From an uncultured Gammaproteobacteria bacterium (GTDB lineage: Bacteria > Patescibacteriota > Patescibacteriia > SBBC01 > CAIJZX01), in assembly GCA_964397195.1 (NCBI GenBank), contig CAYNGY010000001.1:269415-333414 (forward strand): a DNA stretch of 64,000 bases, given 5' to 3'. A program made the position numbers and the translations under genes. The notes under the pieces were generated by a model that ran no database searches, was not told where the DNA came from, and worked only from the letters and a program-made list of their open reading frames with translations. Positions within the stretch are counted from its first letter, which is position 1. The number at the start of each line of letters is the position of its first letter. Below are positions 3,410 to 48,394 of the stretch, in pieces.

Positions 3410-3961
3410 ATGTCACGTATTGGTAAACTCCCTATTCAACTTCCGGCCAATGTGACGCTCACCGTCGCGGACGGGAAGGTCGTGGCCAAAGGCCCGAAAG
3501 GCGAACTGACCTTCGCGCCGCATCGCCATGTAACGGTGACGGTTGCCGATCAACAGGCGGTTATTACGGTCGCCCATCCGGACGAGCAATCCGATCGCGC
3601 GCTCTGGGGGCTCACCCGCGCGTTAGTAGCCAACATGGTTCGTGGCGTCACTGACGGTTTTGCTAAGAAACTTGAGATTAACGGTGTCGGGTATCGCGCG
3701 GTGGTGACCGGTCAGAATGTCCAGCTGTTCCTCGGATTCTCCCACTCGATTGATTTTCCGCTCCCGGCTGGAATCACGGCCACACTTGAGAAAAATGTAC
3801 TGACCATTTCCGGCATTGATAAACAGCTCGTCGGTGAAATTGCCGCCAAAATCCGCGCCCTCAAGAAGCCAGAGCCGTACAAAGGAAAAGGGATCAAGTA
3901 CGATACCGAGGTCATTCGTCGCAAGGCTGGTAAGGTCGTTAAGGCCGCGGGCGCTAAATAA
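3410..3961 (+). CDS. rplF: 50S ribosomal protein L6
   Basis: 183 aa, [12 protein letters not shown]... canonical L6. Confidence 0.95.
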
Positions 3962-3972
3962 GCACGTGCTGT

Positions 3973-4320
3973 ATGAATAACTCACAACAATCACGCCACC
4001 ATCGCCACCGCCGTATTCGCGCCTCGATTATCGGGACCGCTGAACGACCGCGTCTGGTTGTCTTTCGAAGTTTGAAACACATCTCCGCCCAGCTGATTGA
4101 TGACACCGTCGGTCGGACAATTGCCTCGGCCGATGACCGACAGCTCGAAAAAGCGAAAGGGAAGAAGGTTGACCTCGCCAAAGCGGTCGGGACGCTCATT
4201 GCCAAAAAGGCGACGGAGGCCAAAATTACTTCGGTGATATTTGATCGCGGTGGCTATCAGTTCCATGGACGCATTCGCGCACTGGCTGACGGCGCTCGTG
4301 AAGGAGGGTTAACGTTCTAA
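3973..4320 (+). CDS. rplR: 50S ribosomal protein L18
   Basis: 115 aa, basic N-terminus, RLVVFRS... L18 signature. Confidence 0.92.
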
Positions 4321-12268: not shown

Positions 12269-13354
12269 ATGGCGGCTGATTACTACGACCTCCTGGGGGT
12301 CTCGCGCACGGCGAATGCTGACGAAATCAAGAAAGCGTTTCGGGCGAAGGCGCATCAATTCCACCCTGATAAATCCACGGGCGACGCGGAGAAGTTTAAG
12401 CAAATCAACGAAGCCTATCAAGTGCTGAGTGACGCTGAAAAGCGCCAGCAGTACGACCAGTACGGCCAAACCTTTGATCAAGCCCGCCGTCAGGGCGGCG
12501 CCCCGGGCGGCGATCCGTTCGGTGGCTTCGGTGGGTTCCAGGGCGGAAATGTCGACTTCGGCGATCTTGGTGATATGTTCGGCGACATGTTTGGTTTTGG
12601 CGGATCAACGCGAGCAACAAAGCAACATCGCGGTCGCGATATCGCCGTGAGCATGGACGTGCCGTTTCAATATGTCATCGATGGCGGGGAACAGCGGATC
12701 ACCATCAAACGACTCCTCCAGTGTGAACGCTGTCATGGCCAAGGCGCCGAACCGGGCAGTGATCGCGCCACCTGTACCACCTGCCAAGGGAGCGGCCAGG
12801 TTCGTCAGGTCCAGCGGACGATTCTCGGAGCGATGCAGTCAGTTCAGGCCTGTCCCACCTGCGAAGGCGAAGGGACAACGATCAAGACGCGCTGTGACCA
12901 GTGTCGTGGCGAGGGGCGGATCGAAAAAGCTGAGCCACTCTCCGTAAAAATTCCGCCTGGTATTTCCGCCGGCCAGAAAATTCGAATTAACGGCCAAGGT
13001 GAGGCCGGGCGCCGGGGTGCCCCAGCGGGTGACCTCTATATTACCATCATCGTTGCCGAAGATGCCCGATTCGTCCGTGATGGCGACGATTTAACCATGA
13101 CCCGATCCATCCCGCTCTCGACCGCCACCTTGGGGGGCACCATCGACGTCCCGACTGTCGAAAAGGATGTGACCCTCAAAATCCCAAACGGGACGCCAAG
13201 CGGGCGGGAATTCATTATTCGTGGTCAGGGCGTGCCGCATCTCCGCGGACGGGGACGTGGCGATCTACGGGTCAAAGTTGAGGTTGTGATTCCGGCCAAG
13301 CTGAGCGCCAAGGCTAAGAAGCTGTTGAAGGATCTGCAGGCCGAAGGGCTGTAA
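12269..13354 (+). CDS. dnaJ: molecular chaperone DnaJ
   Basis: J-domain with HPD motif (AHQFHPDK), G/F-rich region, four CxxCxGxG zinc-finger repeats. Confidence 0.95.
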   Translation: MAADYYDLLGVSRTANADEIKKAFRAKAHQFHPDKSTGDAEKFKQINEAYQVLSDAEKRQQYDQYGQTFDQARRQGGAPGGDPFGGFGGFQGGNVDFGDLGDMFGDMFGFGGSTRATKQHRGRDIAVSMDVPFQYVIDGGEQRITIKRLLQCERCHGQGAEPGSDRATCTTCQGSGQVRQVQRTILGAMQSVQACPTCEGEGTTIKTRCDQCRGEGRIEKAEPLSVKIPPGISAGQKIRINGQGEAGRRGAPAGDLYITIIVAEDARFVRDGDDLTMTRSIPLSTATLGGTIDVPTVEKDVTLKIPNGTPSGREFIIRGQGVPHLRGRGRGDLRVKVEVVIPAKLSAKAKKLLKDLQAEGL

Positions 13355-15742: not shown

Positions 15743-17155
15743 TTACTTTTTTCGCAACCGAGGCCCCTCGGGGCCGTCGACGATCACAAATCCCTGGGCC
15801 TCGATTTTGGCGCGGATTTTGTCGGCGGTCGCAAAGTCTTTTTTGGCCCGCGCCGCCATTCGTTGTTCGAGGAGTGCGGCTAACTCCGGTGTGGGTGTAG
15901 CGAATTCGTCACCTAGGTTTTGCATATGGAGTCGGGCTTTATCGGGAGTAAGGTCGAGACCGAGGACGCGGTCGAATTGGGCGATGGTAGCCATTTTCTC
16001 TGCGCTTGGCACAGCTTTATCCGCCAGAAGATTGTGCATGATGCCGATGGCTTGGGGAATGTTGAGATCATCGTTCACGGCCGCGGTGAACGAAGCTAGG
16101 TACGCCTCAGCCGGTTCAGCATTCGATGGTTCTGACTCTTGGGCGACGCGGGTCCATACATTCATGATCGCTGTTGCCGCCGCTTGGAGAGATTCCGCGG
16201 TGTAGGATAGCGACTTTCGGTAATGCGTCAGTAAGCACAAGTATCGGTAGGCGAGCGGATCAACTCCAAGCTCACCGAGGAGCATGGCATTTCCTTCCGA
16301 CTTGCCCATCCGTTTGCCCGGTAAGACGAGGAACTCACCGTGCATCCAAACCTTCACAAAATCATGATATCCGGCGCCCTCGTTTTGGGCGATTTCATTT
16401 TCATGGTGGACCGGGATGTGGTCGATACCGCCGCAGTGGATATCAAGGCCATTCGGGAATTCGCTGATCGACATAGCCGAGCACTCGATGTGCCAGCCGG
16501 GGAACCCAACGCCCCATGGGCTCGGCCATTCCATTTGCCGCTGCTCATCCGGTCGCGAAAATTTCCAGAGCGCAAAATCACTCGGGTTCTTTTTTTCGTC
16601 GTTGACTTCGACGCGGGCACCCGCTCGTTTCTCGGATGTTTTTTGCCCGCTCAGTCGGCCATACGTGGCGTCCTTCGACGTATCAAAATAGATGCCATCA
16701 CTCGTCTGGTAGGTAAAACCACTCGTCTCGAGTTTCTTGATCAGATCAATCTGGAGGGCAATAGTTTCTGTAGCCTTCAAAACTACGGTTGGCGAAACGA
16801 TGTTTAGTCGGGCGAGGTCACCAAAAAAGATCTGGGTGTAGTGTTCCGCAATCTGATATGCATCTTTGTGCTCCCGTTTCGCTGCGGCCTCAATTTTATC
16901 AACGCCCTCATCTTGGTGGTCGTTATGACCGCTCAAGTGGCCAACATCGGTGATATTCATGACGTGCTTTACGGCCAAGCCGTTAAAACGTAAAACGCGG
17001 GTCAGCAGATCCTCAAAAATATACGTTCGTAAGTTCCCGATGTGGGCAGAGCTATAGACGGTCGGACCACAGGTATATAAACCAACCGACGATGGAGCCA
17101 AAGGCGTCAGCAGTTCCTTTTTTCGGGTCAGCGTATTATAGAGAGTGATTGGCAT
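15743..17155 (-). CDS. cysS: cysteinyl-tRNA synthetase
   Basis: 470 aa, class I aaRS HIGH (HIGN) and KMSKS-type motifs, CysRS N-terminus (LYTCGPTVY). Confidence 0.93.
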   Translation of the reverse strand: MPITLYNTLTRKKELLTPLAPSSVGLYTCGPTVYSSAHIGNLRTYIFEDLLTRVLRFNGLAVKHVMNITDVGHLSGHNDHQDEGVDKIEAAAKREHKDAYQIAEHYTQIFFGDLARLNIVSPTVVLKATETIALQIDLIKKLETSGFTYQTSDGIYFDTSKDATYGRLSGQKTSEKRAGARVEVNDEKKNPSDFALWKFSRPDEQRQMEWPSPWGVGFPGWHIECSAMSISEFPNGLDIHCGGIDHIPVHHENEIAQNEGAGYHDFVKVWMHGEFLVLPGKRMGKSEGNAMLLGELGVDPLAYRYLCLLTHYRKSLSYTAESLQAAATAIMNVWTRVAQESEPSNAEPAEAYLASFTAAVNDDLNIPQAIGIMHNLLADKAVPSAEKMATIAQFDRVLGLDLTPDKARLHMQNLGDEFATPTPELAALLEQRMAARAKKDFATADKIRAKIEAQGFVIVDGPEGPRLRKK

Positions 17156-17241
17156 ACGGTACGGACAGTGTAGCGGACAAGAGGGAAAAAGAGAACCCCC
17201 GACGGGGGCCGCCGGGGGTAAACCAAAGGACTATCGTGACC

Positions 17242-17433
17242 CTAGGTGAAGATTTGGAGGGTCGTTAACGTCCAAAGTGCAAGGCCAGCCATGATGGTGG
17301 CACCAAGCGTGGTACCGCCAGCAACTTCGACCATCCAGTGTTCTTTTGCTTTCGCTGGGGCGACCGGTGCGGCCGGTTGTGGGGCCGTTGGTTGAACGGC
17401 CTGGACCGAGGCGGTCGGATTCATATTGTCCAT
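17242..17433 (-). CDS. hypothetical small membrane protein
   Basis: 63 aa, Pro/Ala-rich with a C-terminal TM; a GC-rich hairpin plus T-run follows on the minus strand. Confidence 0.4.
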   Translation of the reverse strand: MDNMNPTASVQAVQPTAPQPAAPVAPAKAKEHWMVEVAGGTTLGATIMAGLALWTLTTLQIFT

Positions 17434-17502
17434 AGTGTGTTTGTGTTTTATTTTTTTCGTATCCGCTCTCCGGAGAAACCCGGATACGGAGCTCAGATAG
17501 AA

Positions 17503-18531
17503 TTAAGCTTCAGTCGATCCGGCCTGAGCGTCCGGTGTCGTTGAAGGTCGACCTTTGTTTTCATGATTATTGAAACACTCGAGATCCGCCGCCCATTCCG
17601 TGAGAACAATCTCGACATCTTTTGCGGTGACTGTGGGCGTTGAATCTTCCTGTTGTTTTTGAATCGCGCGCAGACGGACTTTCGCCGCCGCTTCATCCAT
17701 GGCATCAATCGCTTTGTCCGGAAAGTGGCGGTCGGGGAGAACGGTAGCGGAACGATCGACGGCCTCGCGAATTGCGTCATCTGAAATCGTCACCCCATGA
17801 TGTTTTTCGTATCGTGACTTCAAGCCCTGCAAGATGGCGACGGTTTCCGTCGCGCTCGGCTCTTTGACGAAGACTGGTTGGAACCGTCGCTCGAGGGTTA
17901 CGTCTTTGACGATCTTCTGTTCATACTCACCCTCGGTCGTTGCGCCGATTGCCTGAAGTTCACCGCGCGCGAGCGCCGGTTTCAGAATGTCGGCCGCGTC
18001 AATCGCCCCGGTTGCTTCGCCGGCTTCGGCGAGCGTGTGTAGTTCGTCGATAAACAAAATAATATTTCGTTGTGAGGCTACAACTTCATCGAGGATGGCT
18101 TTCAGTCGTTTTTCAAATTCGCCACGATACTTTGTCCCGGCCACGAGTCCGGAAAGATCGAGCGCAAGAATGCGCTTCCCGCGGAGTGGGGAGGGGACAG
18201 TGCCAGTGGAAATCATATTTGCTAAGCCCTCGACGATCGCCGTTTTTCCGACGCCGGAATGTCCGACGAGTACGGCATTATTTTTTGTGCGTCGGGACAG
18301 GATCTCGATGACACGATCAATTTCATGTTGACGCCCAATCACCGGATCAAGTTTGCCGCTCCGTCCGAGCGCCGTTAGATCTTGCGAATAGAGACCGATG
18401 ATTGAGCCGCGCACGCGATACCGAATATTTTCGCGGAGGAGGACAACGCCGAAGACAAGAAAAATTCCGGCAAAGACAAAGAGCGCGATCCAGCCAGTCG
18501 GAGTTGAAATGAAATCAAGAAAAGCGTTCAT
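17503..18531 (-). CDS. membrane-anchored Clp/Hsp100-like AAA+ ATPase (single nucleotide-binding domain)
   Basis: 342 aa: N-terminal TM, then a ClpA/B D1-like domain ([15 protein letters not shown], Walker [10 protein letters not shown], sensor motifs); no second AAA domain. Confidence 0.8.
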
Positions 18532-18540
18532 GGTCGCGGA

Positions 18541-18684
18541 TTACGATTGGGACGTCGAAAGAATGATCCCGAGCACCGCCAAGCCAAGTGCGCCAACCGC
18601 GGCGAGAATAATAACCCCGACCGATACCTTCTTGGCCACCGACGTTTTTGTGGTGGTCACCGTTTGCTGTCGAGAAGTGTTCAT
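18541..18684 (-). CDS. 47-aa single-TM peptide, translationally coupled
   Basis: MNTSRQQTVTTTKTSVAKKVSVGVIILAAVGALGLAVLGIILSTSQS; its ATG overlaps the upstream stop as ATGA; below the ORF-track size cutoff. Confidence 0.45.
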   Translation of the reverse strand: MNTSRQQTVTTTKTSVAKKVSVGVIILAAVGALGLAVLGIILSTSQS

Positions 18685-19406
18685 GTGCGCAACATCAAGA
18701 CGAGAAAGAAGACGGCCGCACTCGCCATCACGTAGCCGAAGGTCAGGCGTGCGTTGGCGGGGATGACGGTTGTCGAAGTCGGTTCCGAAACATGAGCGGT
18801 CTGAGCATTCTTGACGCGGTGAAGCCCAAGGGCAATTCGTTCGTGTTGATCGGTCGTAAGATGCACATCAAGTTTTTCGAGATGTGTTTCTAGACCTTGA
18901 ATAATGAGTCGGACACGATCGGCCGCGCCTCGAGCCTGTGCAGTGAGCGCTACTTGTTGGGCACAATCTTTGAGCAGTGCTTCACATGAACGAGTGAGCA
19001 ATTCTTCCGCCGTGATGTGGGACTGATCAGCCATGGAATCAGCGAGATGGTGAATCGTTCCGGCCGGTGTTTCGCCGACCACCAACAGAAACTTTGGATG
19101 ATAGATGAGCTGGAGGTCAATCCCGACTACACCGCCGGTCGTGCGCCACGGTATGACCAGCTGGAGGTGGCAATACGAACGGTACACATCGATCGCTGAT
19201 TCACGGGGGATGGCCTCAAGCTTCTCGACATCAAGCGGGTGGATACCAAATTCACCGATCAGTCGCTTGACATCGGTTTCATCGAGATGCGTCGCGCGGA
19301 CGAATAACGCCGCGCTTGTTTGGCTGACATGAATTGACATTTTTCCTTTGGTTTTTTGCTTTTCTGACGTTATTGTAGCACGTTTTTCGACAAAAGTCAA
19401 CTTCAA
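18681..19406 (-). CDS. hypothetical protein with C-terminal TM (CorA-like N-terminal fold possible)
   Basis: 241 aa, single C-terminal TM; first gene of a three-gene minus-strand operon. Confidence 0.55.
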   Translation of the reverse strand: MKLTFVEKRATITSEKQKTKGKMSIHVSQTSAALFVRATHLDETDVKRLIGEFGIHPLDVEKLEAIPRESAIDVYRSYCHLQLVIPWRTTGGVVGIDLQLIYHPKFLLVVGETPAGTIHHLADSMADQSHITAEELLTRSCEALLKDCAQQVALTAQARGAADRVRLIIQGLETHLEKLDVHLTTDQHERIALGLHRVKNAQTAHVSEPTSTTVIPANARLTFGYVMASAAVFFLVLMLRT

Positions 19407-19446
19407 TAAATATGATTCAGGGCGACCGTGCGACGGTCGCCCTGAG
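19401..19446 (-). terminator. rho-independent terminator (minus strand)
   Basis: Perfect 11-bp stem CAGGGCGACCG/CGGTCGCCCTG followed by a T-rich run on the minus strand. Confidence 0.75.
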
Positions 19447-19463
19447 GTGCGTTTCGAGAGCGG

Positions 19464-20141
19464 CTAGTAGTTGCCGCTCGGGAGCGTGTTGACGGTGATG
19501 ACCGCCTCGCTGGACTTCGACCCGGAGTAGGACGTGACCAGCAGGTGAACGGTCTGACCGATGTTCTGGAATGTGAATCGAACACCGTGGACGCGTTCGA
19601 TCATGCCGGGTCGCCCGCGCTCGTCCGGCCGATTCATCGACTCGAGTGCCAGGCAGCGATCGGCGCCGGCGCGAGGTCCGTGTTTGAAGACGGACTCCAG
19701 GTCGTCGGGATCAGCCAAGTAATCGATCTCGACTCCGGTGATCACCGGCCCGCCCTGAGGAACGACCCAGAGCGTGAAGCCCCGAGCGCCGTCGGTCCAG
19801 ACTTGGCCGCCGCCGTAGAGCGTTTCGGCCTTGAGCGGCCGACGCCGGTTGTGAGACAGCGGATCAGGCAGGGCATTCCACCGGACGACGTACCGCGGCT
19901 CGACCATCACGCCCTCGGTGCTACTGCGCTGCGAGGCCGCGCGGCCATCACCGTGGTGGTGACCGGCGTTGCTGGCGTCGAAAACGACTTCGAAAACGCC
20001 GCTTCGCGCATGGACACCGTTGCCGGTGACCGTGACGCTCGGCTTCTCGCGCGGTGCGATCTTGACGCGGGCGTCGGCCATGGTGGTGAAGCCGATGAGC
20101 GCCATCAGGATCAACGCGAACTGCATGAACTTGTTGCGCAT
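19464..20141 (-). CDS. hypothetical secreted protein (high-GC)
   Basis: 225 aa, signal peptide MRNKFMQFALILMALIGFTTMADA, GGAGG SD. Confidence 0.65.
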   Translation of the reverse strand: MRNKFMQFALILMALIGFTTMADARVKIAPREKPSVTVTGNGVHARSGVFEVVFDASNAGHHHGDGRAASQRSSTEGVMVEPRYVVRWNALPDPLSHNRRRPLKAETLYGGGQVWTDGARGFTLWVVPQGGPVITGVEIDYLADPDDLESVFKHGPRAGADRCLALESMNRPDERGRPGMIERVHGVRFTFQNIGQTVHLLVTSYSGSKSSEAVITVNTLPSGNY

Positions 20142-20650: not shown

Positions 20651-21121
20651 ATGGCAGAAGGCCAAATACACACACCAGAACGACCGTCATTTGCCCCACC
20701 GGAAGTTGGGCCGGTTGATATTGAATCCAAGGTCGAGCATCCGACTCCGTCCGTAGATACGACGATGGTGCATGAAGTCGTACCCATCACCCCAATCATC
20801 CCAGTCAATGCTCAGCCGATGATGGATGCGGATGGCACGACGTCGGCGCTAACGAAGCGGGTCGAAGACATCATGGTGGCCGGTCTCGCCGAGACGTATG
20901 CCCAACTTGATCCGGCCACGCAAGCCAAGTTCAAGGCTGAAGGTGAACGCACGGCCGGACTGATTTCTGATATGTTGGCCACGGCTAAGATCCACGTCAA
21001 AAAAATCGTCGATCTGCTCGTCGCCTGGTTACGCATTGTGCCGGGCGTCAATAAATACTTTCTTGAACAAGAGGCAAAAATCAAGGCCGACAAACTGTTG
21101 GCGTTAAAAAAGAAGTCATGA
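20651..21121 (+). CDS. hypothetical protein
   Basis: 156 aa; extended -10 (TGTGATATAAT) just upstream; ATGA-coupled to the next gene. Confidence 0.6.
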   Translation: MAEGQIHTPERPSFAPPEVGPVDIESKVEHPTPSVDTTMVHEVVPITPIIPVNAQPMMDADGTTSALTKRVEDIMVAGLAETYAQLDPATQAKFKAEGERTAGLISDMLATAKIHVKKIVDLLVAWLRIVPGVNKYFLEQEAKIKADKLLALKKKS

Positions 21122-23637
21122 ACCCTGATAGCGCCGAGTTTATCGATTTGAATGCGCGTCCGCTGATGATCAGTCCATGGTGGTGGGTCGCGCTCGCGAC
21201 AGTCGTCGCCTTCGTGATCGCTGTGATCGTAATTCGGTACCTGACTCACAAACTGAATCGAATTCCGCGGGCGATGGAATATGTCGTACTGCTCGTTTTA
21301 CTCCCGCGCGAAACGCTGAAACTCGAACAACAGAATAAAGATTGGCGGGATGTCTTAGCCGGGTTTGAAACGCTCTACCTGACCTTGGCCGGTGTTCGAC
21401 TCGAACATGGCGGGTCTTTCGCCAAAGCCTGGCGCCATTTTTGGTTCGGCCGCCACGATCATCTTTCACTCGAGATCGTTTCGACCAAAGGACAAATTCA
21501 ATTCTACCTCGCTGTGCCACGCGCCGTGCGCCAACTGGTTGAACTTCAGATTCAGGCGCAGTACCCGCAAGCGGACATCGAAGAAGCCGAAGACTACAAT
21601 TTGTTCGCCGCGAACTCAACTATCCGCGGAACGATGCTTCGTCTGACGAAGCCCTTCTTTTTTCCGATCCGGACGTATCGGAAGCTCGATAGCGATCCGC
21701 TCAATGCCATTACGAATGTCCTGAGCAAAGTCCAGCCGCAAGAAGGCGCGGCCATCCAGATTCTCATTCGCCCGAAATCTTCGAACTGGAATAGTCGTGG
21801 TCGGCATATTGCCCGCGCCATGCAAGAAGGGAAAACGCTCGGCGAAGCCATGGGCAAGTCCGGCGGTAATGTGTTACTGGCCTCATTAAAAACCGAAAGC
21901 GATCGGTATAAGCAACCGAAGACGCCGTACGTCACGCCGATGGACCAAGAGCTGATACGGACGATGGAGGAAAAAGCGGGGAAGCCCGGTTTTGATGCCA
22001 ACATCCGCATCGTCACAGCTTCACCACTCGCTCCGAATGCTGACGTCCACCTCGAAAATATCGTCAACGCTTTCAGTCAATTTATCGCCCCAGAGTCGGG
22101 CAATCAATTTCGTCGCACCAGCATCGTCAGCTCGAGTCAACTGATTAGCGATTTTATCTTTCGGCATTTCGAGAATGGACGCCGCCTCGTCTTGACGAGC
22201 GAGGAGCTGAATAGTATCTATCACTTCCCGCTCCCGCAGACTGAGACGCCGAATATTCAATGGCTCGCGGCCAAACAAGCCGCGGCGCCGGTCAATTTGC
22301 CGAGTGACGGAATCACGCTTGGTCATAATGTCTTCCGCGGTCACGACGCCGTGATCAAATTAAAACCGAACGATCGCCGTCGCCATGTCTACGTGATTGG
22401 GACGACCGGATCAGGAAAAACGGTACTGATGCAAGAAATGGCCAAACAGGATATTCGCAATGGCGAAGGCGTTTGTATTGTTGATCCGCACGGGAGTTTT
22501 GTCGACGACGTCTTGCCCTGCATTCCGCCGTCGCGCATGCATGACGTCATTCTGTTTGATCCGTCGGATGTCGATCGGCCGATGGGGCTCAATATGCTCG
22601 AGGCTCGCTCACCGGAAGAGCGTGACTTTGCCGTCCAGGAGATGATTGCCATCTTCATGAAACTGTTCCCGCCGGAAATGATCGGGCCGATGTTTGAACA
22701 CAACATGCGGAACGCGATGTTGACGCTGATGGAAGACGACGAACATCCGGGAACGATTGCGGATATCCCGCGCATGTTCACCGATAAAACATTCCAGCAA
22801 TACAAAATTTCGAAAGTGAAAGACCCGGTCGTTCGGGCGTTCTGGGAGAAAGAGATGGCGAAGACGAGCGATTTCCATAAATCCGAAATGCTCGGCTACC
22901 TAATTTCAAAGGTTGGGCGATTTATTGAGAACTCGATGATGCGTAACATCATCGGACAACCAAAATCAGGGTTCAATTTTCGGGCGGTCATGGACGAACG
23001 CAAAATCTTGTTGGTGAATCTCTCGAAAGGAAAAATTGGCGAAGTCAACGCGGCGCTGCTCGGGCTAATCATCGTTTCGAAATTGCAGATGGCTGCCCTT
23101 GGTCGGGCGAACGTCACCGAACTAAATCGGCCGGATTTCTTCCTCTATATTGATGAGTTCCAAAACTTTATTACCGATTCAATTGCGACAATTCTATCGG
23201 AGGCCCGAAAATATAAATTGAATCTGACCATGGCCCATCAATATATGGGGCAACTCGTCCAGGGCACAGACACGCGAGTGCGGGATGCGGTGCTCGGCAA
23301 CGTGGGGACAATGGTCGCCTTCCGAATTGGTGTCGAAGATGCGGAAGTGCTTGATAAACAATTTGCTCCGACTTTTACGGCTTTCGATTTGGTCAACCAG
23401 CAGCGCTTTACCGCGTACGTTCGTCTCCTAATCGATAATACGGCCGCGCCGCCGTTTCATATGCAGACCTACCCATCCACGATTGGCCAGACGACGGTGG
23501 GTGAGGCGATCAAACAATACTCGCGCCTGCGCTACGGGAAAGGCCGCGCCGTGGTCGAGGCCGAAATTCTTGAGCGGACAAAGTTGGGCACCGTCACCGC
23601 GGGCGCGACGCCACTCCCACCAGAACCGTCTCGCTGA
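21118..23637 (+). CDS. VirD4/TraG/TraD-like type IV coupling protein family ATPase (membrane-anchored)
   Basis: 839 aa, N-terminal TM, Walker A GTTGSGKT, Walker B FLYIDEFQNF, overall T4CP-like architecture. Confidence 0.8.
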   Translation: MNPDSAEFIDLNARPLMISPWWWVALATVVAFVIAVIVIRYLTHKLNRIPRAMEYVVLLVLLPRETLKLEQQNKDWRDVLAGFETLYLTLAGVRLEHGGSFAKAWRHFWFGRHDHLSLEIVSTKGQIQFYLAVPRAVRQLVELQIQAQYPQADIEEAEDYNLFAANSTIRGTMLRLTKPFFFPIRTYRKLDSDPLNAITNVLSKVQPQEGAAIQILIRPKSSNWNSRGRHIARAMQEGKTLGEAMGKSGGNVLLASLKTESDRYKQPKTPYVTPMDQELIRTMEEKAGKPGFDANIRIVTASPLAPNADVHLENIVNAFSQFIAPESGNQFRRTSIVSSSQLISDFIFRHFENGRRLVLTSEELNSIYHFPLPQTETPNIQWLAAKQAAAPVNLPSDGITLGHNVFRGHDAVIKLKPNDRRRHVYVIGTTGSGKTVLMQEMAKQDIRNGEGVCIVDPHGSFVDDVLPCIPPSRMHDVILFDPSDVDRPMGLNMLEARSPEERDFAVQEMIAIFMKLFPPEMIGPMFEHNMRNAMLTLMEDDEHPGTIADIPRMFTDKTFQQYKISKVKDPVVRAFWEKEMAKTSDFHKSEMLGYLISKVGRFIENSMMRNIIGQPKSGFNFRAVMDERKILLVNLSKGKIGEVNAALLGLIIVSKLQMAALGRANVTELNRPDFFLYIDEFQNFITDSIATILSEARKYKLNLTMAHQYMGQLVQGTDTRVRDAVLGNVGTMVAFRIGVEDAEVLDKQFAPTFTAFDLVNQQRFTAYVRLLIDNTAAPPFHMQTYPSTIGQTTVGEAIKQYSRLRYGKGRAVVEAEILERTKLGTVTAGATPLPPEPSR

Positions 23638-42033: not shown

Positions 42034-44409
42034 CTAGACGTCGAGCGGATTCGGAACCGACGTTTGCGGAACGGCCTCGCTGAGGAGCTGGAGATGGAAG
42101 GCATGCGCGTCGCCGCGTTTGCGAACTTTGTTCCAGAGCGGAGTGGCACCCTCAATGGCTTTGATCACGCTGCGCCAGACAACCAAGGCGATCACAATCC
42201 GGTAGAAGATACGTTGGAGTGGGAGGAGGACAATCAGCCAGCGTTTCCCGCGCTCCGGATATAAGGCGAGACCGGCGTAGAGCAGGTCAATCGCGGTAAA
42301 AATCAGGTAGACAATGAAAGCCGATTGACCGGAACCGGTGATGATCGCGAGGATGAGCAGGAAGTCCATCAGTGGGACGAGGAGCGAGATCAAAACGGTA
42401 AAGATCAAGGTATTCGGGAGGACAACCCAGCCCAGTGCCGGTCGCTCAAAGCTCAAAAAGTGGCGTTTGTATTTCCACAGGCACTGGACCGTGCCGAAAA
42501 TCCATCGCGAGCGTTGCTTAATAAAATCCTTCAGGTGGAACGGCGTTTCGCTGTAGGCATAGGCTTGCGACTCATAGACGATGCGATGGCCGGCGGCGAG
42601 GAGCGCCAAGGTCAGGTCCTGGTCTTCGACGAGTGTATCGAGACTGAAACCCCCGGCGGCTAGGACGAATGAACGGCGCCAGGCCCCAACCGGTCCGGGC
42701 ACGACGCCGATAGCGTTTATTTCATTAAAGGCGCGCTTGTCCATGTTCTGCGTGATGATGTACTCGGCCGACTGGAAGACGTTGAGAATATTTCGCGACC
42801 GCGTAGCGCAGACGCGACCAGCCACGGCCGCTACGGACGGATCATGAAAATGACGAACGAGGCGGGCGATGGTGTACCGATCAAAAATAGTGTCGCCATC
42901 CATGAAGACGATCACCTCGGTCTTGGCTAAATGTAAACTATGGTTTAATGCACGGGCCTTGCCGCCGTTTTTCAGGTTGACGAGGCGAACACGTCGGTCA
43001 TGGCGGTCCTTGATGATTCCTCGGACAATCTCGGCGGTCTTGTCTTTCGAGCCGTCGTTGACGACCAAGATCTTGAGGTGTTCGTAGGTACTATTGAGGA
43101 CGCTGGTAATCGTCGCGCCGATATTATCTTCCTCGTTGTAGGCGGGAATGACGACGGTGACCGGCTTGGTCCAGGCCGACGGCCGAGCGTACCCATTGAC
43201 GGCAGCCACGCCGCGGAAGAGCAGGGTCATGATCAACCGTACGAGTACTAACAAGATGACGATCCGGGTGATCCAAATAACCGTCGTGGCAATCGCCGGC
43301 GCGAGGCTAATGTAGACGCGTGACGCATCAGAGAAGAGGAAGACCGTATTCGTTTGGTGGGAAGGGAGCGGTTGGTACATGGTGGCCGTAATCGCATCGG
43401 CGATTGACATCCGAGTGGTCCGGTCGACCACGCGTTTGGTATCCGGGAGATTGTGTGTGACCTGCCAGTCGACGACGGCGGCTTGCGTCGATGCGCCGTA
43501 GGTCCCGCCACGGTCAACAATCGAATAGCCGCTCATAATCATGAATTGCTGCAGGGCGGTGACGGAGCCGTCAGTTTTCGCATCGGTCGCGCCGGGTACG
43601 AGATCTTGGGTGATCGCCATTTTTTTGGCCGCATCGAGGCCGAGGAGGTCTGAAGCGGTGGTGAACCGATACCCACGGGCGCGAAGCTCGTGGATTATGT
43701 CGGTCAGCGCGGCGATCGTATAGCGTTCGCTGCTCCCATCGTGCAAGAGAATGATATGCCCGCCACCCTTCATCTTTTCCAGCAAGGCGTCAACATTCTG
43801 TTTCGGAGAGGTCGCGACCCAATCTTTCGGGTCGACGTCTGCGCCGACAACCACGTACCCATTTTGCAGGGCCCAGTACAATTGCGGTTGCGATCCCGTC
43901 GGGGCGGTGGTAGGGTCGCTGCCAATATCGAGGAGATATGGGGGCCGGTAGAGCCGGATCGGTTGGCGGGTAATCGTTTCAATGATCGTATCGGTCAGGT
44001 TGAGCTCGAGTCGTAACCGCCAGTTTGAAGACTGGGCTGTTTGGGAGTGCGTGAAGCTGTGATTGCCGATTTCAAAGCCGTTCTCGGCCGCTTTTTTAAC
44101 AAGGGCCGGGTAACGCAGCGCCCGCGAGCCAATAAAAAAGAAGGTGGCCGGAACCTGCTCTCGTTTTAGCACGTCCATGATCGCTTCGGTGCGACCGGGC
44201 GAAGGGCCGTCATCAAAAGTCAGCGCCACGACCTTCGCGGCGCCGACATTATTGTAGTAATAGTTAATATTGACCTGCGCTGGTGGTCGATTGCTCGTCA
44301 GGAGGCCATAACTGAAATCGGCGACGAGAAAGATACTCAGGGCCAAAACAACGCCAACGATTCCACGAAAGATGAACTTACGAAAACGTCGCTGATTATG
44401 GAAAATCAT
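42034..44409 (-). CDS. bifunctional polysaccharide deacetylase (NodB/PgaB-like) / family-2 glycosyltransferase (PgaC/IcaA-like synthase)
   Basis: N-terminal TM, NodB motifs (TFDDGP, HSFTHS), a PG-binding-like segment, then a GT2 domain (VIPAYNEE, DGDT, QRSRW-type QxxRW) with C-terminal TMs. Confidence 0.8.
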   Translation of the reverse strand: MIFHNQRRFRKFIFRGIVGVVLALSIFLVADFSYGLLTSNRPPAQVNINYYYNNVGAAKVVALTFDDGPSPGRTEAIMDVLKREQVPATFFFIGSRALRYPALVKKAAENGFEIGNHSFTHSQTAQSSNWRLRLELNLTDTIIETITRQPIRLYRPPYLLDIGSDPTTAPTGSQPQLYWALQNGYVVVGADVDPKDWVATSPKQNVDALLEKMKGGGHIILLHDGSSERYTIAALTDIIHELRARGYRFTTASDLLGLDAAKKMAITQDLVPGATDAKTDGSVTALQQFMIMSGYSIVDRGGTYGASTQAAVVDWQVTHNLPDTKRVVDRTTRMSIADAITATMYQPLPSHQTNTVFLFSDASRVYISLAPAIATTVIWITRIVILLVLVRLIMTLLFRGVAAVNGYARPSAWTKPVTVVIPAYNEEDNIGATITSVLNSTYEHLKILVVNDGSKDKTAEIVRGIIKDRHDRRVRLVNLKNGGKARALNHSLHLAKTEVIVFMDGDTIFDRYTIARLVRHFHDPSVAAVAGRVCATRSRNILNVFQSAEYIITQNMDKRAFNEINAIGVVPGPVGAWRRSFVLAAGGFSLDTLVEDQDLTLALLAAGHRIVYESQAYAYSETPFHLKDFIKQRSRWIFGTVQCLWKYKRHFLSFERPALGWVVLPNTLIFTVLISLLVPLMDFLLILAIITGSGQSAFIVYLIFTAIDLLYAGLALYPERGKRWLIVLLPLQRIFYRIVIALVVWRSVIKAIEGATPLWNKVRKRGDAHAFHLQLLSEAVPQTSVPNPLDV

Positions 44410-44776
44410 GGGGGAAAATCTTTGGCGGTGACAAGGACTCGACTGTGCGGGCCGCAATTTTCCCTGTATTTAGCTCCGGTGTCAAGTTCGTTTGGATGGT
44501 CAAGTTGGGGACAAGTTTTTTGGCCACAACCAAAAGGGCAAATGGAACAATTCATCCCCAACTTATTTGTTGACAGGGGAGCCGGCCATATGGTTAGCTA
44601 ATATCCGCGCAATTCGTAAAGACCGAAAAGAAAACGATCCTTTCCCATTGTCTGGACCTCAACGGAACGTCATGCGTTTAGGAGGATCTATGAGAACCGT
44701 CCCATTTCGGCGGTCCTTTTTTCGGTATTTTCACTCGTCGTATATTATCTGGTCATAAAAAAATAATTCCATCATT

Positions 44777-47700
44777 ATGCAGAGCAAGTTCTCAATCGGC
44801 TGGAGAGTGCCGAACCGAAAAACCACCCGCCAGCGTTCGTGGCGCACCCTAAATGCGATCGTGGCGGTCTCGGTATTGGTCAACGTCTGTGGCTTTGGCC
44901 TGTTTGGGGCACCACAAGCGGCCGCGGCGCTTGATTCGGGTGCGATTGCGCCGAACCAGACACTGGTGTCGAATGCGGTCACCAGCCCAGATAATGCGTG
45001 GGTTTCCGACAATAATCGTGCCATATTTGGTGCCAGCACCGACACGGCAGATTATGGCTTCGCGAATATCGGCGTGCCGGTTGGCGCCACGATCACTGGT
45101 ATTCAGGTGACGTTGGAAGGGTTGCATTCATCGGGGTTTAACGCGCGTACCCTTACGACAGCACTTTGGAATACGTCGGGGAGCACACCGGACGCGTACA
45201 CGACGGTAAAAACAGCCTCGTCGATGTCGACGAGCTCAAACGACAACGTCAGCACGTTGGGTGGCGCGTCTGATCTGTGGGGCAAAACATGGACCGATGC
45301 TGACTTTGCCAGTGGTACCTTCAAATTGCGGATTGGTGTCAGCGGCTCCAACGGCAGCGCCCAACTCGATCAAGTACTGATCAAAGTGTATTTTACACCG
45401 GCCTGTGCATTAGCTACCCAGGGCAACCAGGTGAGTAACGGCGATTTTGAGATCGCCAGCGGCGATCCAACACTGCCGATGGACTGGGTGCCCGGCTACT
45501 TCGACCCCCTCAATATTACGCCAACCTTTACCTATCCGGTGGCCGGTAACCCTGGCAAGGCGGCGAACGTTCAAGTTTCTGCCTACACGGCGGCTTCTGG
45601 TGAAGAGGCGAAGTGGCTCTTTACCCCGGTCACGACCTGCCCGGGCAAAACGTTTGATATTTCCATCGGCTACACCTCAAACGTTCTGACGAGCGTCTGG
45701 GTGGCGTACCAAATGTCGAATGGAACGACGCCGAATCCAGAATGGGTCGCTGATGCGCCGGCCAGTGCGGCGTGGTCCACCGTGACAGGTCAAATAACCA
45801 TTCCGGCCGGAGTCGCGAGCTTTCAGGTCTTCCAGTCGCTGGCCGCCGTCGGTTCGCTAACGATTGATGCCGTCTCGGTCAAACCGCTCGTGCCGTTCCC
45901 CGAAGGGATGGTGACGCTCAATTTCGATGATACCTTCGCGAGCCAATATACCGTCGCCCCGCCAATCCTCAGCGCCGCGAACCTGAAGGCCAGCTTCTTC
46001 GCGATCACCGATTCGTCCGTTGGTATCGGATCGGACAGCAACTATATGACCTGGGCGAATGTGGCGGCACTGAATGCAGCTGGCCATGAAATCGGTGCTC
46101 ACACTCGGACGCACCCCGACTTAAGTCTCCTGACACCAGAACAGGCGCAGATTGAAATTGCTGGCTCGAAGACGGATTTAGTAAATCACGGTCTGACGCC
46201 AACCACCTTTGTGTATCCGTATGGCGTCTATAACGCCGCCATCATCCAGATGGTCAAAGATGCTGGATTCACGAGCGCCCGAAGCGTGGTTCGTGGTTTC
46301 AACTACCGAACATCGAATAAGTACGCCCTCCTTGATCAGCAAATCATCAACACGACCACGGTCGCCGAAGTTCAAGGTTGGATTGATCAAGCCAAAGCCA
46401 ATAAAACGTGGCTGATTCTTGAGCTCCATGAGCAGACCTCGACACCGGGTCCTGACACTGGCGTGTACTACAACACACCGACGCGATTGCAGGAAATCGT
46501 CACCGCGATTAAGAATAGCGGCATCAAGGTGGTGACGCAATCCGAGGGGACGACCTTAATCAATCCGGTGATCACGGTGGCGCCGTACGTGTTGACGCCA
46601 ACGAATCAAGATATCACCGTGACCGCCACGACAGATTCGGGCACGCTCAACGCGACGTCGCACCTATTTACTGCTAATGGATCGTTTGATTTTATCGCGA
46701 CGGATGAGAACGGGAATTCGACGACAAAAACGGTCACCATTACCAATATCGATAAGGTTGCGCCGGTGGTGACTATTGCGCCGTACACATTGACGCCGAC
46801 CAATCAAGACATCACCGTCGCGGCCAGCACAAACGAGGGGACGCTGAATACCACCTCACATGTCTTTACGGTCAATAGCGCTTTCGACTTCATCGCGACC
46901 GATGCAGCCGGGAATGTGACCACCCAGGCCGTGACCGTGACGAACATTGATAAAACAGCGCCGATTATTACGCTCGATCCTTACAATACGGCGCTGACGA
47001 ATAGCGATATTACCGTCACGGCGCATACGAATGAAGGAACGCTCAATGTGGCCTCGCACACGTTCACGCTGAACGGCTCGTTTGATTTCGTGGCGACTGA
47101 TGCAGCCGGGAATGTGACCACCCAGACCGTGACGATCAATAATATCGATCGCATCGCGCCCGCTGGCACCATCTCGTACAACACCACGGCGCCGACCAAT
47201 GGCCACGTCGTGGCCACCCTGCTCCCAAACAAGTCCGTGACCGTGACGAATAACGGTGGCTTGTTCACCCATGTGTTCACCACGAACGGGAGCTTTACGT
47301 TCACCTTCGTCGATGAGGCAAATAATACCGGATCGGCGATGGCGATTGTCTCAAACATTGATACGACCGCCCCGGTCATCACATTGACGCCATACAATAC
47401 CGCCCCGACAAATACTGATATCACGGTCTTTGCCACGACAAACGAGGGCTCACTCAACGCGACGGCACATACGTTTAGTGCGAACGGCGCCTTCACCTTC
47501 GTGGCGACGGATGCGGCCGGTAATAGCACGTCTCAGGCGGTGACGATCAGCAATCTGAACAAGGTCAAGCCGGTGATCACCCTGATCGGGTCAGCTACCA
47601 TCACTCTGACAAAAGGCGCGGCCTATAGCGATGCTGGCGCGACGGCGACTGATGATGTCGATGGCGATATCTCGATCAAGATGACGGCTGAGAACTCGGT

Positions 47701-48394
47701 GAACACGGCGGTTGTCGGGACCTATGCTGTCCGCTACACCGTGACCGATTCCGCCGGCAACGTAGCCGATCCAGTCACTCGGACGGTGAACGTGGAGGCT
47801 GCCCCGCAAGTGCTAGGCGCCACAACCTTCCACCCGATCATCAAAACGATCAAGCCGGTTAAAGGTGTGTACTCGTACAAGCTGAACGGGAAGACGATCA
47901 AGATTCAGCCGTTCGGTTCAGACTATAAAGGTGTGGTGTGGGGACGGAGCATCGACTTCGGAACGAGTGGCAAGATTTATGTCTTCCTGAATGCCGGTGC
48001 CTATAAGAAAGGCCAGATCAAGGTGTACCAAGCCAACGGGAAGCTCTTAAAGAGCTACAGTCCGTACGGTGGGTTTGCCCTGAGTGGCCTGAACGCTTCC
48101 ATCGTTTCGGAATCAAACGATCAAGTCTATCTCGTGGTGGGGACGCTCCGCGCCGGGACGACCGTCAAGACCTATCAGGTTACCGCCAAGAAGCTCACGG
48201 CGTTGAATGGACTCGTGACGACGACCAAATCCGGAAATGTCCAAGTGAGTTTCCAAAAGCTGTATAAAGGCCAGTATGGTCTGGTGACGATGAAGCTCGG
48301 CGATCGCAAGACATTGAAAGTCTGGAAACTGAATTTCACGACCAAAAAGTTTGTCGAAGATAAGAAAATCAGCAAAACGAAGCTGAAAATCTAA
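44777..48394 (+). CDS. large (1205 aa) secreted surface protein with NodB-like deacetylase domain and tandem Ig-like repeats
   Basis: Signal peptide; NodB-like block (VTLNFDDTF...HTRTHPDL); five about 75-aa repeats; C-terminal DUF5011/HYR-like Ig domain. Confidence 0.8.
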   Translation: MQSKFSIGWRVPNRKTTRQRSWRTLNAIVAVSVLVNVCGFGLFGAPQAAAALDSGAIAPNQTLVSNAVTSPDNAWVSDNNRAIFGASTDTADYGFANIGVPVGATITGIQVTLEGLHSSGFNARTLTTALWNTSGSTPDAYTTVKTASSMSTSSNDNVSTLGGASDLWGKTWTDADFASGTFKLRIGVSGSNGSAQLDQVLIKVYFTPACALATQGNQVSNGDFEIASGDPTLPMDWVPGYFDPLNITPTFTYPVAGNPGKAANVQVSAYTAASGEEAKWLFTPVTTCPGKTFDISIGYTSNVLTSVWVAYQMSNGTTPNPEWVADAPASAAWSTVTGQITIPAGVASFQVFQSLAAVGSLTIDAVSVKPLVPFPEGMVTLNFDDTFASQYTVAPPILSAANLKASFFAITDSSVGIGSDSNYMTWANVAALNAAGHEIGAHTRTHPDLSLLTPEQAQIEIAGSKTDLVNHGLTPTTFVYPYGVYNAAIIQMVKDAGFTSARSVVRGFNYRTSNKYALLDQQIINTTTVAEVQGWIDQAKANKTWLILELHEQTSTPGPDTGVYYNTPTRLQEIVTAIKNSGIKVVTQSEGTTLINPVITVAPYVLTPTNQDITVTATTDSGTLNATSHLFTANGSFDFIATDENGNSTTKTVTITNIDKVAPVVTIAPYTLTPTNQDITVAASTNEGTLNTTSHVFTVNSAFDFIATDAAGNVTTQAVTVTNIDKTAPIITLDPYNTALTNSDITVTAHTNEGTLNVASHTFTLNGSFDFVATDAAGNVTTQTVTINNIDRIAPAGTISYNTTAPTNGHVVATLLPNKSVTVTNNGGLFTHVFTTNGSFTFTFVDEANNTGSAMAIVSNIDTTAPVITLTPYNTAPTNTDITVFATTNEGSLNATAHTFSANGAFTFVATDAAGNSTSQAVTISNLNKVKPVITLIGSATITLTKGAAYSDAGATATDDVDGDISIKMTAENSVNTAVVGTYAVRYTVTDSAGNVADPVTRTVNVEAAPQVLGATTFHPIIKTIKPVKGVYSYKLNGKTIKIQPFGSDYKGVVWGRSIDFGTSGKIYVFLNAGAYKKGQIKVYQANGKLLKSYSPYGGFALSGLNASIVSESNDQVYLVVGTLRAGTTVKTYQVTAKKLTALNGLVTTTKSGNVQVSFQKLYKGQYGLVTMKLGDRKTLKVWKLNFTTKKFVEDKKISKTKLKI
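46560..47580 (+). repeat. about 225-bp tandem repeats (5 copies) inside the surface-protein gene
   Basis: Repeating peptide unit PVVTIAPYTLTPTNQDITV.A.T.EGTLN.TSH.FT.N..FDF.ATDAAGN.TTQ.VT.TNIDK.AP read directly in the sequence. Confidence 0.85.

Follow-up and report, generated by a model that had tools for sequence, protein, structure and literature searches.

A membrane-anchored, D1-only Clp/Hsp100 ATPase family of Patescibacteria and its predicted CorA-derived and single-pass peptide neighbours

In a 64,000-nt stretch of contig CAYNGY010000001.1 (positions 269,415 to 333,414, forward strand; termed the window here) from assembly GCA_964397195.1 of an uncultured bacterium, a gene for a short Clp/Hsp100-like ATPase was analysed together with its neighbours. 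The protein of 342 amino acids (aa) combines an N-terminal transmembrane (TM) helix with a single AAA+ domain of the D1 type, and it belongs to a family that is widespread in Patescibacteria and whose sampled members form one clade. New here is an Hsp100 family, typical of Patescibacteria, whose members contain D1 only and are anchored in the membrane; they are often found with a CorA derivative that seems dead as a channel and with two single-pass peptides. The AAA+ domain as such is conventional. The combination of TM helix and D1 only is not covered by any curated family of NCBIfam or Pfam, and no paper on the family was found in the literature on Patescibacteria ClpB, membrane-anchored single-AAA Hsp100 proteins, GMN-less CorA with AAA proteins, or bacterial Msp1-like proteins. 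As to function, we tentatively propose that the ATPase is a membrane-tethered unfoldase or extractase acting on membrane proteins, to which the products of the adjacent genes would be accessory. An earlier inspection of the DNA, made without database searches and called the sequence-only reading below, had described three open reading frames (ORFs) at this site, and all of them are present on the minus strand: 18681..19406 (241 aa if started at TTG), 18541..18684 (47 aa), and 17503..18531, the ATPase gene.

The ATPase was characterized by homology, motifs, and a structure model. From the N-terminus, it consists of the TM helix, some 15 residues of linker, the whole D1 domain with its large and small subdomains, and a short tail. 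The hydrophobic helix spans residues 14-32 (nt 18436-18492) and is followed by RENIRYRVR. Since the first 13 residues carry no positive charge, the positive-inside rule would place the N-terminus outside and the remainder of the protein in the cytoplasm. Pfam searches detected AAA (E 8.7e-13) and AAA_lid_9 (E 4.8e-24). In comparisons with NCBIfam, residues 47-290 were aligned to residues 158-401 of ClpB, and alignments to the D1 segments of ClpA, TssH, ClpG, and ClpK were also obtained. All scores remain far below the respective cutoffs because the ATPase has only D1; those for ClpB, ClpA, and TssH, derived from the D1 parts, are 334-374 bits with cutoffs of 885-1232. Sequence searches of the PDB yielded ClpC residues 166-406 (E 5.3e-90) and ClpB residues 162-411 (E 1.3e-89), and the D1 domain (residues 47-325) is 55-58% identical to those of ClpC and ClpB. 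The AlphaFold2 (AF2) model (pLDDT 83.5) consists of a long helix (residues 11-41), the large and small parts of D1, a final helix (residues 303-323), and a disordered tail (residues 324-342). When this model was submitted to Foldseek, the D1 domains of ClpC, ClpB, and ClpA were retrieved with an E value of 6e-29 and a root-mean-square deviation of 2-3 Å over about 270 residues.

By its sequence, the ATPase is an AAA+ protein of the Clp/Hsp100 D1 (ClpABC-N) type in which every defining motif is recognizable: Walker A GHSGVGKT (nt 18241-18264), pore loop 1 GTKYRGEFE (nt 18112-18138), Walker B IILFIDE (nt 18043-18063), sensor 1 ATT (nt 17935-17943), the arginine fingers RR (nt 17884-17889), and PDKAID (nt 17704-17721). 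Compared to the D1 rings of ClpC, ClpB, and ClpA, Walker A and B, KYRGEFE, sensor 1, the arginine fingers, and AAA_lid_9 are identical or nearly so. Within the family, alignments of 34 and 48 sequences revealed that G-x-S-G-V-G-K-T, GTKYRGEFE including the pore tyrosine, ILFxDE, T199, R215-R216, and PDKAID are invariant. Only three or four residues set the family apart from canonical D1 domains, the diagnostic ones being A168, D181, and T212, where 132 canonical domains have V, N, and A, respectively.

Class I Clp/Hsp100 proteins (ClpA, ClpB, ClpC, ClpE, ClpL, ClpV) possess two tandem AAA+ modules and a Clp_N domain, but the ATPase is anchored in the membrane, has no match to Clp_N (PF02861) in Pfam, residues 1-46 being TM helix and linker, and ends after the D1 small domain, so that D2 is missing. 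The M-domain, the element within the D1 small domain of ClpB and Hsp104 that couples them to DnaK/Hsp70, is lacking as well. Against ClpB, the alignment breaks off at residue 401, at the onset of the coiled coil, and resumes with the last helix of the D1 small domain; about 12 residues between helices 272-291 and 303-323 close the insertion point. Helix 303-323 appears to correspond to the last D1-small helix of ClpA and ClpB. The ClpP partners ClpA, ClpC, ClpE, and ClpX carry an IGF/IGL-type docking loop in their last AAA module, but the ATPase has no D2, in which such a loop resides. An IGL tripeptide is present at residues 44-46; since it precedes D1 and is not conserved (relatives read LGL, LDL, LQM, or LEL), it is not a docking loop. 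The sequence-only reading, which had noted the TM helix, a single D1-like domain, and neither a second AAA domain nor a docking loop, is therefore confirmed on these points. Peptidase domains were not found with Pfam or NCBIfam. As the sequence contains neither a protease domain nor a ClpP loop nor an M-domain, ClpAP/ClpCP-type proteolysis and DnaK-coupled disaggregation as performed by ClpB appear unlikely. Of the unfoldase or disaggregase that had been envisaged, the membrane-anchored, non-classical Clp/Hsp100 protein is thus retained, but disaggregation in the manner of ClpB is improbable for want of the M-domain.

A protein of this kind could also be an artefact or part of a split gene, that is a ClpB or ClpC truncated by an error in sequencing or assembly, or one half of a Clp protein whose D2 ring is encoded separately. 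Nothing specific points to this explanation apart from the resemblance of its D1 to those of ClpC and ClpB and the existence of other partial architectures (see P0228 below), and it is extremely improbable in view of the family data. Among the matches listed (120 + 120), more than 230 homologue clusters of 300-365 aa were counted, nearly all matches being of this length, and the same length and stop position recur in independent assemblies. The homologues listed are 57-78% identical to the query. In a rough neighbour-joining tree of 160 D1 domains based on a simple distance, all 28 short forms sampled fell into one clade with a stem of 0.059, the median internal branch being 0.017. The ratio of nonsynonymous to synonymous substitution rates (dN/dS, omega) of the ATPase was about 0.07-0.2 in the closest pairs of loci; as synonymous sites are saturated for most pairs (pS > 0.7), only the closest pairs are quoted here and below. 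The post-D1 regions of five full-length Clp proteins had no match when compared with the six-frame ORFs from the window and from 27 family loci, each about 20 kb long or shorter (designated L with a number; the window is WIN), and ClpP, with an E. coli sequence as query, had none in the same set. No other Clp gene is present in the 64-kb window. Moreover, the TM helix stands in place of Clp_N, and the ATPase gene is directly followed by a conserved 63-aa gene and cysS. Because the same length is found in hundreds of homologues, the sampled forms constitute a single clade, and neither D2 nor ClpP is encoded nearby, the ATPase is a genuine short protein and not a truncated ClpB or ClpC.

The named sources of the homologues are Candidatus Kerfeldbacteria, Candidatus Buchananbacteria, the Parcubacteria group, and the Patescibacteria group. 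In public databases they are called "hypothetical" or "ATP-dependent Clp protease ATP-binding subunit (ClpC)", and the latter name is misleading for the family. Three metagenome-assembled genomes (MAGs) labelled "uncultured Gammaproteobacteria bacterium" (L001, L002, L008) contain a Patescibacteria-type locus with synteny as in Kerfeldbacteria MAGs, and these labels look wrong. The closest homologue (L081, 86% identical; L081:1315-1632) continues past the stop position of the family for about 100 residues that resemble none of its members, up to the end of a metagenome contig of only 1.6 kb, and this extension is probably a chimeric assembly. P0228, a homologue of 437 aa on a 6.5-kb contig, has Clp_N, AAA, and AAA_lid_9, whereas D2 is absent and a TM anchor apparently so as well; it could represent a further D1-only architecture or an evolutionary intermediate, or it may be truncated.

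The ATPase gene had been considered the last of three genes in an operon. The three genes are there, but the sequence indicates that the transcription unit most likely comprises four, since the conserved 63-aa gene is located between the ATPase gene and a terminator-like hairpin. At the upstream end, a promoter-like site was recognized on the minus strand (19372..19400) by its match to the consensus only: TTGACT as -35 at 19400, a spacer of 17 nt, and TACAAT as -10 ending at 19372, with 10 of 12 matches and the TG of an extended -10. Just before this site is the terminator-like hairpin of the upstream gene (13-bp stem, 19445-19417). At the other end, the ATPase gene is followed by a spacer of 69 nt, the 63-aa ORF, and an intrinsic-terminator-like hairpin (17219-17195, minus strand; 11-bp stem with 9 GC pairs, then TCTCTTTTT), beyond which cysS begins (17155..15743). 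Between 19372 and 17219 the terminator scan detected no other strong-stem site and one weak 6-bp site within the first gene. An Rfam scan of 17000-19700 gave nothing above chance, and no M-box, Mg2+ riboswitch, or other leader was found there. The spacer downstream of the ATPase gene (17434-17502, minus strand) contains an inverted repeat, CCGTATCCG ... CGGATACG, which is followed by an A-run rather than a T-run and was not called by the terminator scan; it may form an RNA-processing or stability hairpin.

Within the unit, the genes are tightly packed. As noted before, the start codon of the 47-aa ORF (ATG 18684-18682) overlaps the stop codon of the first gene (TGA 18683-18681) in an ATGA junction, and from the end of this ORF to the ATPase start there are 9 nt. 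All four products are single-pass membrane proteins, the soluble parts of which, as predicted from the positive-inside rule, face the cytoplasm.

The first gene (18681..19340, minus strand) specifies a reduced protein of the CorA superfamily, as judged from Pfam, the AF2 model, Foldseek, and phmmer. The ORF of 241 codons exists, but its TTG at 19406 is situated in the -35 box, and the likely start is therefore ATG 19340, preceded by AAAGGAAAA. This yields 219 aa, the length also given in the public gene call (P0121). The N-terminal half matched Pfam CorA with an E value of 3e-5 and 23.9 bits, below the gathering cutoff of 27 bits. The AF2 model, calculated from the phmmer alignment, reached a pLDDT of 90.2, and its best 50 PDB matches in Foldseek were all CorA or ZntB (E 2e-9, probability 1.0). 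A profile of the short clade likewise had CorA as its best 10 PDB matches (E 0.009-0.14). A word-indexed homologue search with the 219-aa protein returned only the query itself, and exhaustive phmmer searches retrieved 24 representative clusters, nearly all of 218-243 aa and matching end to end. Among the phmmer matches, P0128 (1052 aa, 12 stretches) was discarded as a low-complexity tandem repeat. All 12 aligned homologues linked to an ATPase gene matched Pfam CorA at E<0.01. For the CorA-like gene, omega was 0.12 in the pair L002-L082.

With CorA and ZntB of the MIT superfamily the protein shares a cytoplasmic N-terminal fold, the HPLDxE motif, and a C-terminal helix equivalent to TM1. The channels have GMN at the end of TM1 and two C-terminal TM helices, whereas the window protein contains just one TM helix (residues 197-218, nt 18687-18752) and ends one residue later. 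The same organization, 219-243 aa and one C-terminal TM helix, is found throughout its clade (WIN, L001, L002, L003, L081, L082, L083), which compared to full-length relatives is without TM2 and about 90 residues of helical stalk. The syntenic counterparts in more distant loci (L006, L007, L085, L086, L087, L090, and L093) are full-length members of the CorA family with two TM helices and Pfam E values down to 1e-53. None of the 12 aligned ATPase-linked homologues contains GMN; their loop is of the (A/L)P(G/N)TP type. At this position full-length forms have LGIGAPGTP, FAARLPNTP, or similar sequences, and the short forms end there. From its sequence, the first gene product is thus a CorA-fold protein failing two channel criteria, GMN and two TM helices, which makes a function as Mg2+ channel unlikely. 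It represents what appears to be a clear case of a repurposed channel scaffold, from which GMN and then one TM helix were lost.

These data bear on two other explanations of the locus. The ATPase could be a dedicated motor or regulator of the CorA-derived protein, acting in gating, oligomer disassembly, or turnover and thereby controlling ion flux, with the peptides as modulators. A CorA-like gene is indeed the most frequent immediate neighbour, being located directly upstream of the ATPase gene in 15 of 24 evaluable loci, often at a distance of 4-40 nt or with a small ORF in between, and the association extends over full-length forms with two TM helices and reduced forms with one. In enterobacteria, the small peptides MgtR and MgtS modulate Mg2+ transporters together with FtsH. 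However, GMN, the motif defining functional CorA channels, is not found in any aligned partner, the window protein has only one TM helix, many members of the ATPase family are without a CorA neighbour, and a Mg2+ riboswitch is not present in the region scanned with Rfam. Control of ion flux is accordingly considered distinctly unlikely. The other explanation is an anti-phage or abortive-infection module with the CorA-like protein as membrane effector under an AAA+ ATPase, as in CorA-associated type III CRISPR systems. GMN-less CorA-like proteins serve as membrane effectors in some defence systems, and the CorA protein of L006 gave a marginal match to PADLOC CorA (E 0.006). Yet PADLOC produced only generic AAA matches for the ATPase and nothing for the other proteins of the window, the locus is part of a housekeeping block that is conserved throughout a class of genomes and not of a variable island, and no CRISPR, nuclease, or sensor genes are found alongside. 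In view of the generic PADLOC matches, a role in defence was rejected as hardly credible.

The second gene (18541..18684, minus strand) encodes the 47-aa peptide, which is supported by the ORF and by profile matches beside ATPase genes. It consists of a Thr/Lys-rich cytoplasmic N-tail, a TM helix at residues 20-42 (nt 18559-18627), and about five residues outside. The sequence-only reading had regarded this single-TM ORF as unannotated. The ORF is real and has a single TM helix, but gene sets of NCBI and Logan already list the identical sequence as a called gene. Its conservation in syntenic loci was also asked for and was found: members of the family adjoin the ATPase gene in at least 10 divergent loci of about 24 evaluable ones (WIN, L081, L082, L002, L003, L005, L007, L087, L088, L092), and the recurring position is between the CorA-like gene and the ATPase gene. 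A profile built from eight copies detected non-seed copies beside the ATPase gene in L081 (E 1.5e-7) and L087 (E 4.8e-7). In the two least-saturated pairs omega was about 0.38-0.40 at dS of about 0.8-0.9. The idea that the ORF is a severed TM2 of CorA was rejected, as L007 and L005 carry a two-TM CorA protein plus the small ORF.

In some loci the peptide family has an extracytoplasmic extension (L087, L088, and L085, where the protein of 147 aa at 3553-3996 contains a Big_7 Ig domain). A second-round profile also matched N-termini of larger proteins in family loci: a Reprolysin-like peptidase of 571 aa in L004 (3-1715, minus strand; E 8e-4), a 407-aa protein with a weak CARDB match in L155 (5195-6418), two proteins in L095 (928-2100 and 5197-7812), where a weakly CARDB-like ectodomain also occurs, one protein in L090 (7576-8652, minus strand), and that of L085. 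On the larger proteins these matches are weak, with E values from 8e-4 to 1.7. The shared tail-plus-TM module reads roughly x-T-x-T-K-T-x(3-6)-K-V-S-V-G, followed by the TM helix, and may be a lineage-specific signal-anchor or sorting motif. The 47-aa peptide looks like a free-standing copy of this signal-anchor of surface proteins. From this similarity, and from the tail-plus-TM proteins encoded directly after the ATPase gene in L095 and L155, one could suppose that surface proteins with the module are clients of the ATPase, which would serve as a chaperone in their biogenesis or anchoring, would hold or pull the tail during insertion or relay force to the ectodomain, and would remove nothing. 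The weakness of the matches argues against such a role, as does the result of the profile search in the 64-kb window, where no second copy of the motif was found, and Clp D1 rings are not known to act as insertases. Overall, it appears quite improbable.

The fourth gene (17242..17433, minus strand) was defined by phmmer matches downstream of ATPase homologues and is already a called gene in NCBI. Its product of 63 aa is a tail-anchored peptide with a disordered N-tail rich in Pro, Ala, Thr, and Gln, the sequence EHWMVEVAGG, and a C-terminal TM helix (nt 17257-17331). The motif of the family is EHWxVExxGG. Members are found directly downstream of the ATPase gene in eight loci; the phmmer matches, with E values from 1.7e-12 to 5e-6, are in L082, L001, L002, L083, L005, L003, and L087. 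Omega was 0.17 (L082-L002).

Taken as a membrane-tethered unfoldase or extractase, which is the most economical interpretation, the ATPase would act in the following way. Like other Clp D1 rings, it would hexamerise and thread polypeptides through an axial pore, substrate threading by an oligomeric ring being implied by the intact pore loop and catalytic residues. The TM anchor is attached to the N-terminus of D1, presumably the side where ClpA, ClpB, and ClpC admit substrates, and with the anchor on the entry side and a linker of about 15 residues, the entry face would be held within a few nanometres of the inner leaflet. The ring could then grip cytoplasmic tails of membrane proteins and pull, resulting in extraction, unfolding, or remodelling without proteolysis in cis. 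Each of the two small peptides would present a disordered cytoplasmic N-tail beside one TM helix, and the CorA-derived protein would contribute a cytoplasmic funnel domain borne by a single TM helix. The three partners, found in many lineages but missing from others, could be adaptors, regulators, or model substrates. Since the 47-aa peptide seems to copy anchors of surface proteins, proteins with Ig-like, CARDB-like, or metallopeptidase ectodomains would be a plausible clientele.

Several observations weigh against this proposal. Hexamerisation of a D1-only protein is assumed by analogy, and the larger share of oligomerisation in ClpB and Hsp104 comes from the second ring. In pore loop 1, the ATPase carries the KYRG usual for Clp proteins and not the double-aromatic loop tied to extraction of membrane proteins (PMC7018516). 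Saturation of dS in most pairs also means that selection on the small peptides is only loosely measured. The 47-aa ORF is absent in L001, L083, L006, L086, L093, and L090, and the ATPase gene is without CorA-like or small-ORF neighbours in L004, L008, L013, L094, and L095; the Buchananbacteria-type loci among them (L008, L013, L094, L095) have none of the three partners. Finally, the four-gene unit is part of a larger syntenic block with the genes for a type IV coupling protein (T4CP)-like ATPase, g156, cysS, dus, and g195, which includes the CorA-less L004, so that gene neighbourhood alone is weak evidence of functional linkage.

The last points could mean that the ATPase is the sole functional novelty and that the CorA-like, 47-aa, and 63-aa genes are neighbours by descent in a slowly rearranging block. 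Synteny extends over more than 10 kb in many loci and includes the unrelated cysS, dus, and T4CP-like genes, and in several lineages the ATPase does without CorA-like or small-ORF neighbours. On the other hand, the ATGA overlap and gaps of 4-10 nt suggest translational coupling, and in the window a promoter-like site and a terminator-like hairpin of their own enclose the four genes and set them apart from cysS. In addition, all four products are single-pass membrane proteins, and the CorA-like protein has been maintained despite the loss of its channel signature, as seen from its omega value and the 24 representative clusters. Mere inheritance of the gene order is therefore regarded as unlikely. 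Because the ATPase persists without these neighbours, we conclude that it is the conserved core, and that the other three genes are lineage-variable accessories and not obligatory subunits. As for the complex suggested by the sequence-only reading, we infer a possible association of the four products solely from the tight gene coupling.

Among known systems, the extractase proposed here resembles the eukaryotic Msp1/ATAD1 in design. Msp1 is an AAA protein pulling mislocalised tail-anchored membrane proteins out of the membrane via its central pore (PMC7018516). In architecture and presumed geometry the two are alike: each has one AAA ring, is anchored by a TM helix at the N-terminus, and lacks a protease. 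Clients of Msp1 are tail-anchored, and so is the 63-aa product of the unit. In contrast, Msp1/ATAD1 belongs to the meiotic clade of AAA proteins and has a WY pore loop, W187 and Y188 forming the double-aromatic pore loop 1 of Msp1 (PMC7018516), whereas the best homologues of the ATPase are all Clp D1 domains with KYRG. By analogy, we infer a functional similarity to Msp1. A more specific version, in which the ATPase is the Patescibacteria counterpart of Msp1/ATAD1 built from a single D1 ring and reads the lineage-specific tail-plus-TM signal at the N-termini of surface proteins, with the 47-aa peptide, the tail-anchored peptide, and the channel-dead CorA scaffold as adaptors or regulators, is possible but on the doubtful side. 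If it were true, a third, previously undescribed class of Hsp100 proteins would be defined, D1-only and membrane-anchored. Hsp100/Clp proteins are taught as two classes, one with two rings (D1 + D2) and one with a single ring of the D2 type (ClpX, HslU).

FtsH is a membrane-anchored AAA+ protease, and substrate access to its central pore is described as still debated (PMC7949044). Like the ATPase, it has a membrane-tethered AAA ring facing the inner leaflet. The differences are two TM helices, a periplasmic domain, an M41 peptidase, and an FtsH-type AAA domain in FtsH, but one TM helix and a D1 of the Clp type in the ATPase. Small hydrophobic peptides and cation transporters are linked to FtsH both genetically and functionally (MgtR and MgtS with MgtA/MgtC).

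A conserved and catalytically intact stand-alone D1 would indicate that D1 can be a motor on its own, and the membrane anchor would put a Clp-type motor at the bilayer, a role otherwise held by FtsH in bacteria. Retention in hundreds of genome-reduced, largely uncultivated, host-attached lineages of Patescibacteria suggests that the family has a core function in proteostasis of the envelope or membrane, or in turnover of surface proteins. The small size of the ATPase makes it well suited to biochemistry and cryo-electron microscopy.

Further genes of the window were inspected. Just upstream of the unit, a small secreted protein or lipoprotein of 225 aa is encoded (19464-20141, minus strand). 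Genes for proteins with a signal peptide, often with a Cys lipobox, are also found at this position in L001-L004, L006, L086, L090, L092, and L093. The sequence is not conserved between the loci, and phmmer detected no homologue of the 225-aa protein. Divergent from the operon side are a 156-aa ORF (20651-21121, plus strand) and, following it, the gene for a protein of 839 aa with TrwB/TraG/VirD4-type coupling-protein domains and an N-terminal TM region (21118-23637, plus strand). Both are located at the same relative position in 9-10 family loci, which indicates a lineage-wide syntenic block and not a mobile element. A dnaJ gene (12269-13354, plus strand), recognized by precomputed Pfam matches to DnaJ, DnaJ_C, and the CXXCXGXG zinc finger, is about 4 kb from the operon in the same syntenic block; DnaK or ClpB was not seen in the 64-kb window. 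The 807-aa ORF at 42034..44457 (minus strand) was considered as a full-length Clp candidate and rejected, as it specifies a fusion of polysaccharide deacetylase, peptidoglycan-binding domain, and glycosyltransferase family 2. The adjacent gene (44777-48394, plus strand) encodes a protein of 1205 aa in which a polysaccharide deacetylase is combined with a bacterial surface Ig-like domain, and the two genes look like a pair for exopolysaccharide synthesis and modification.

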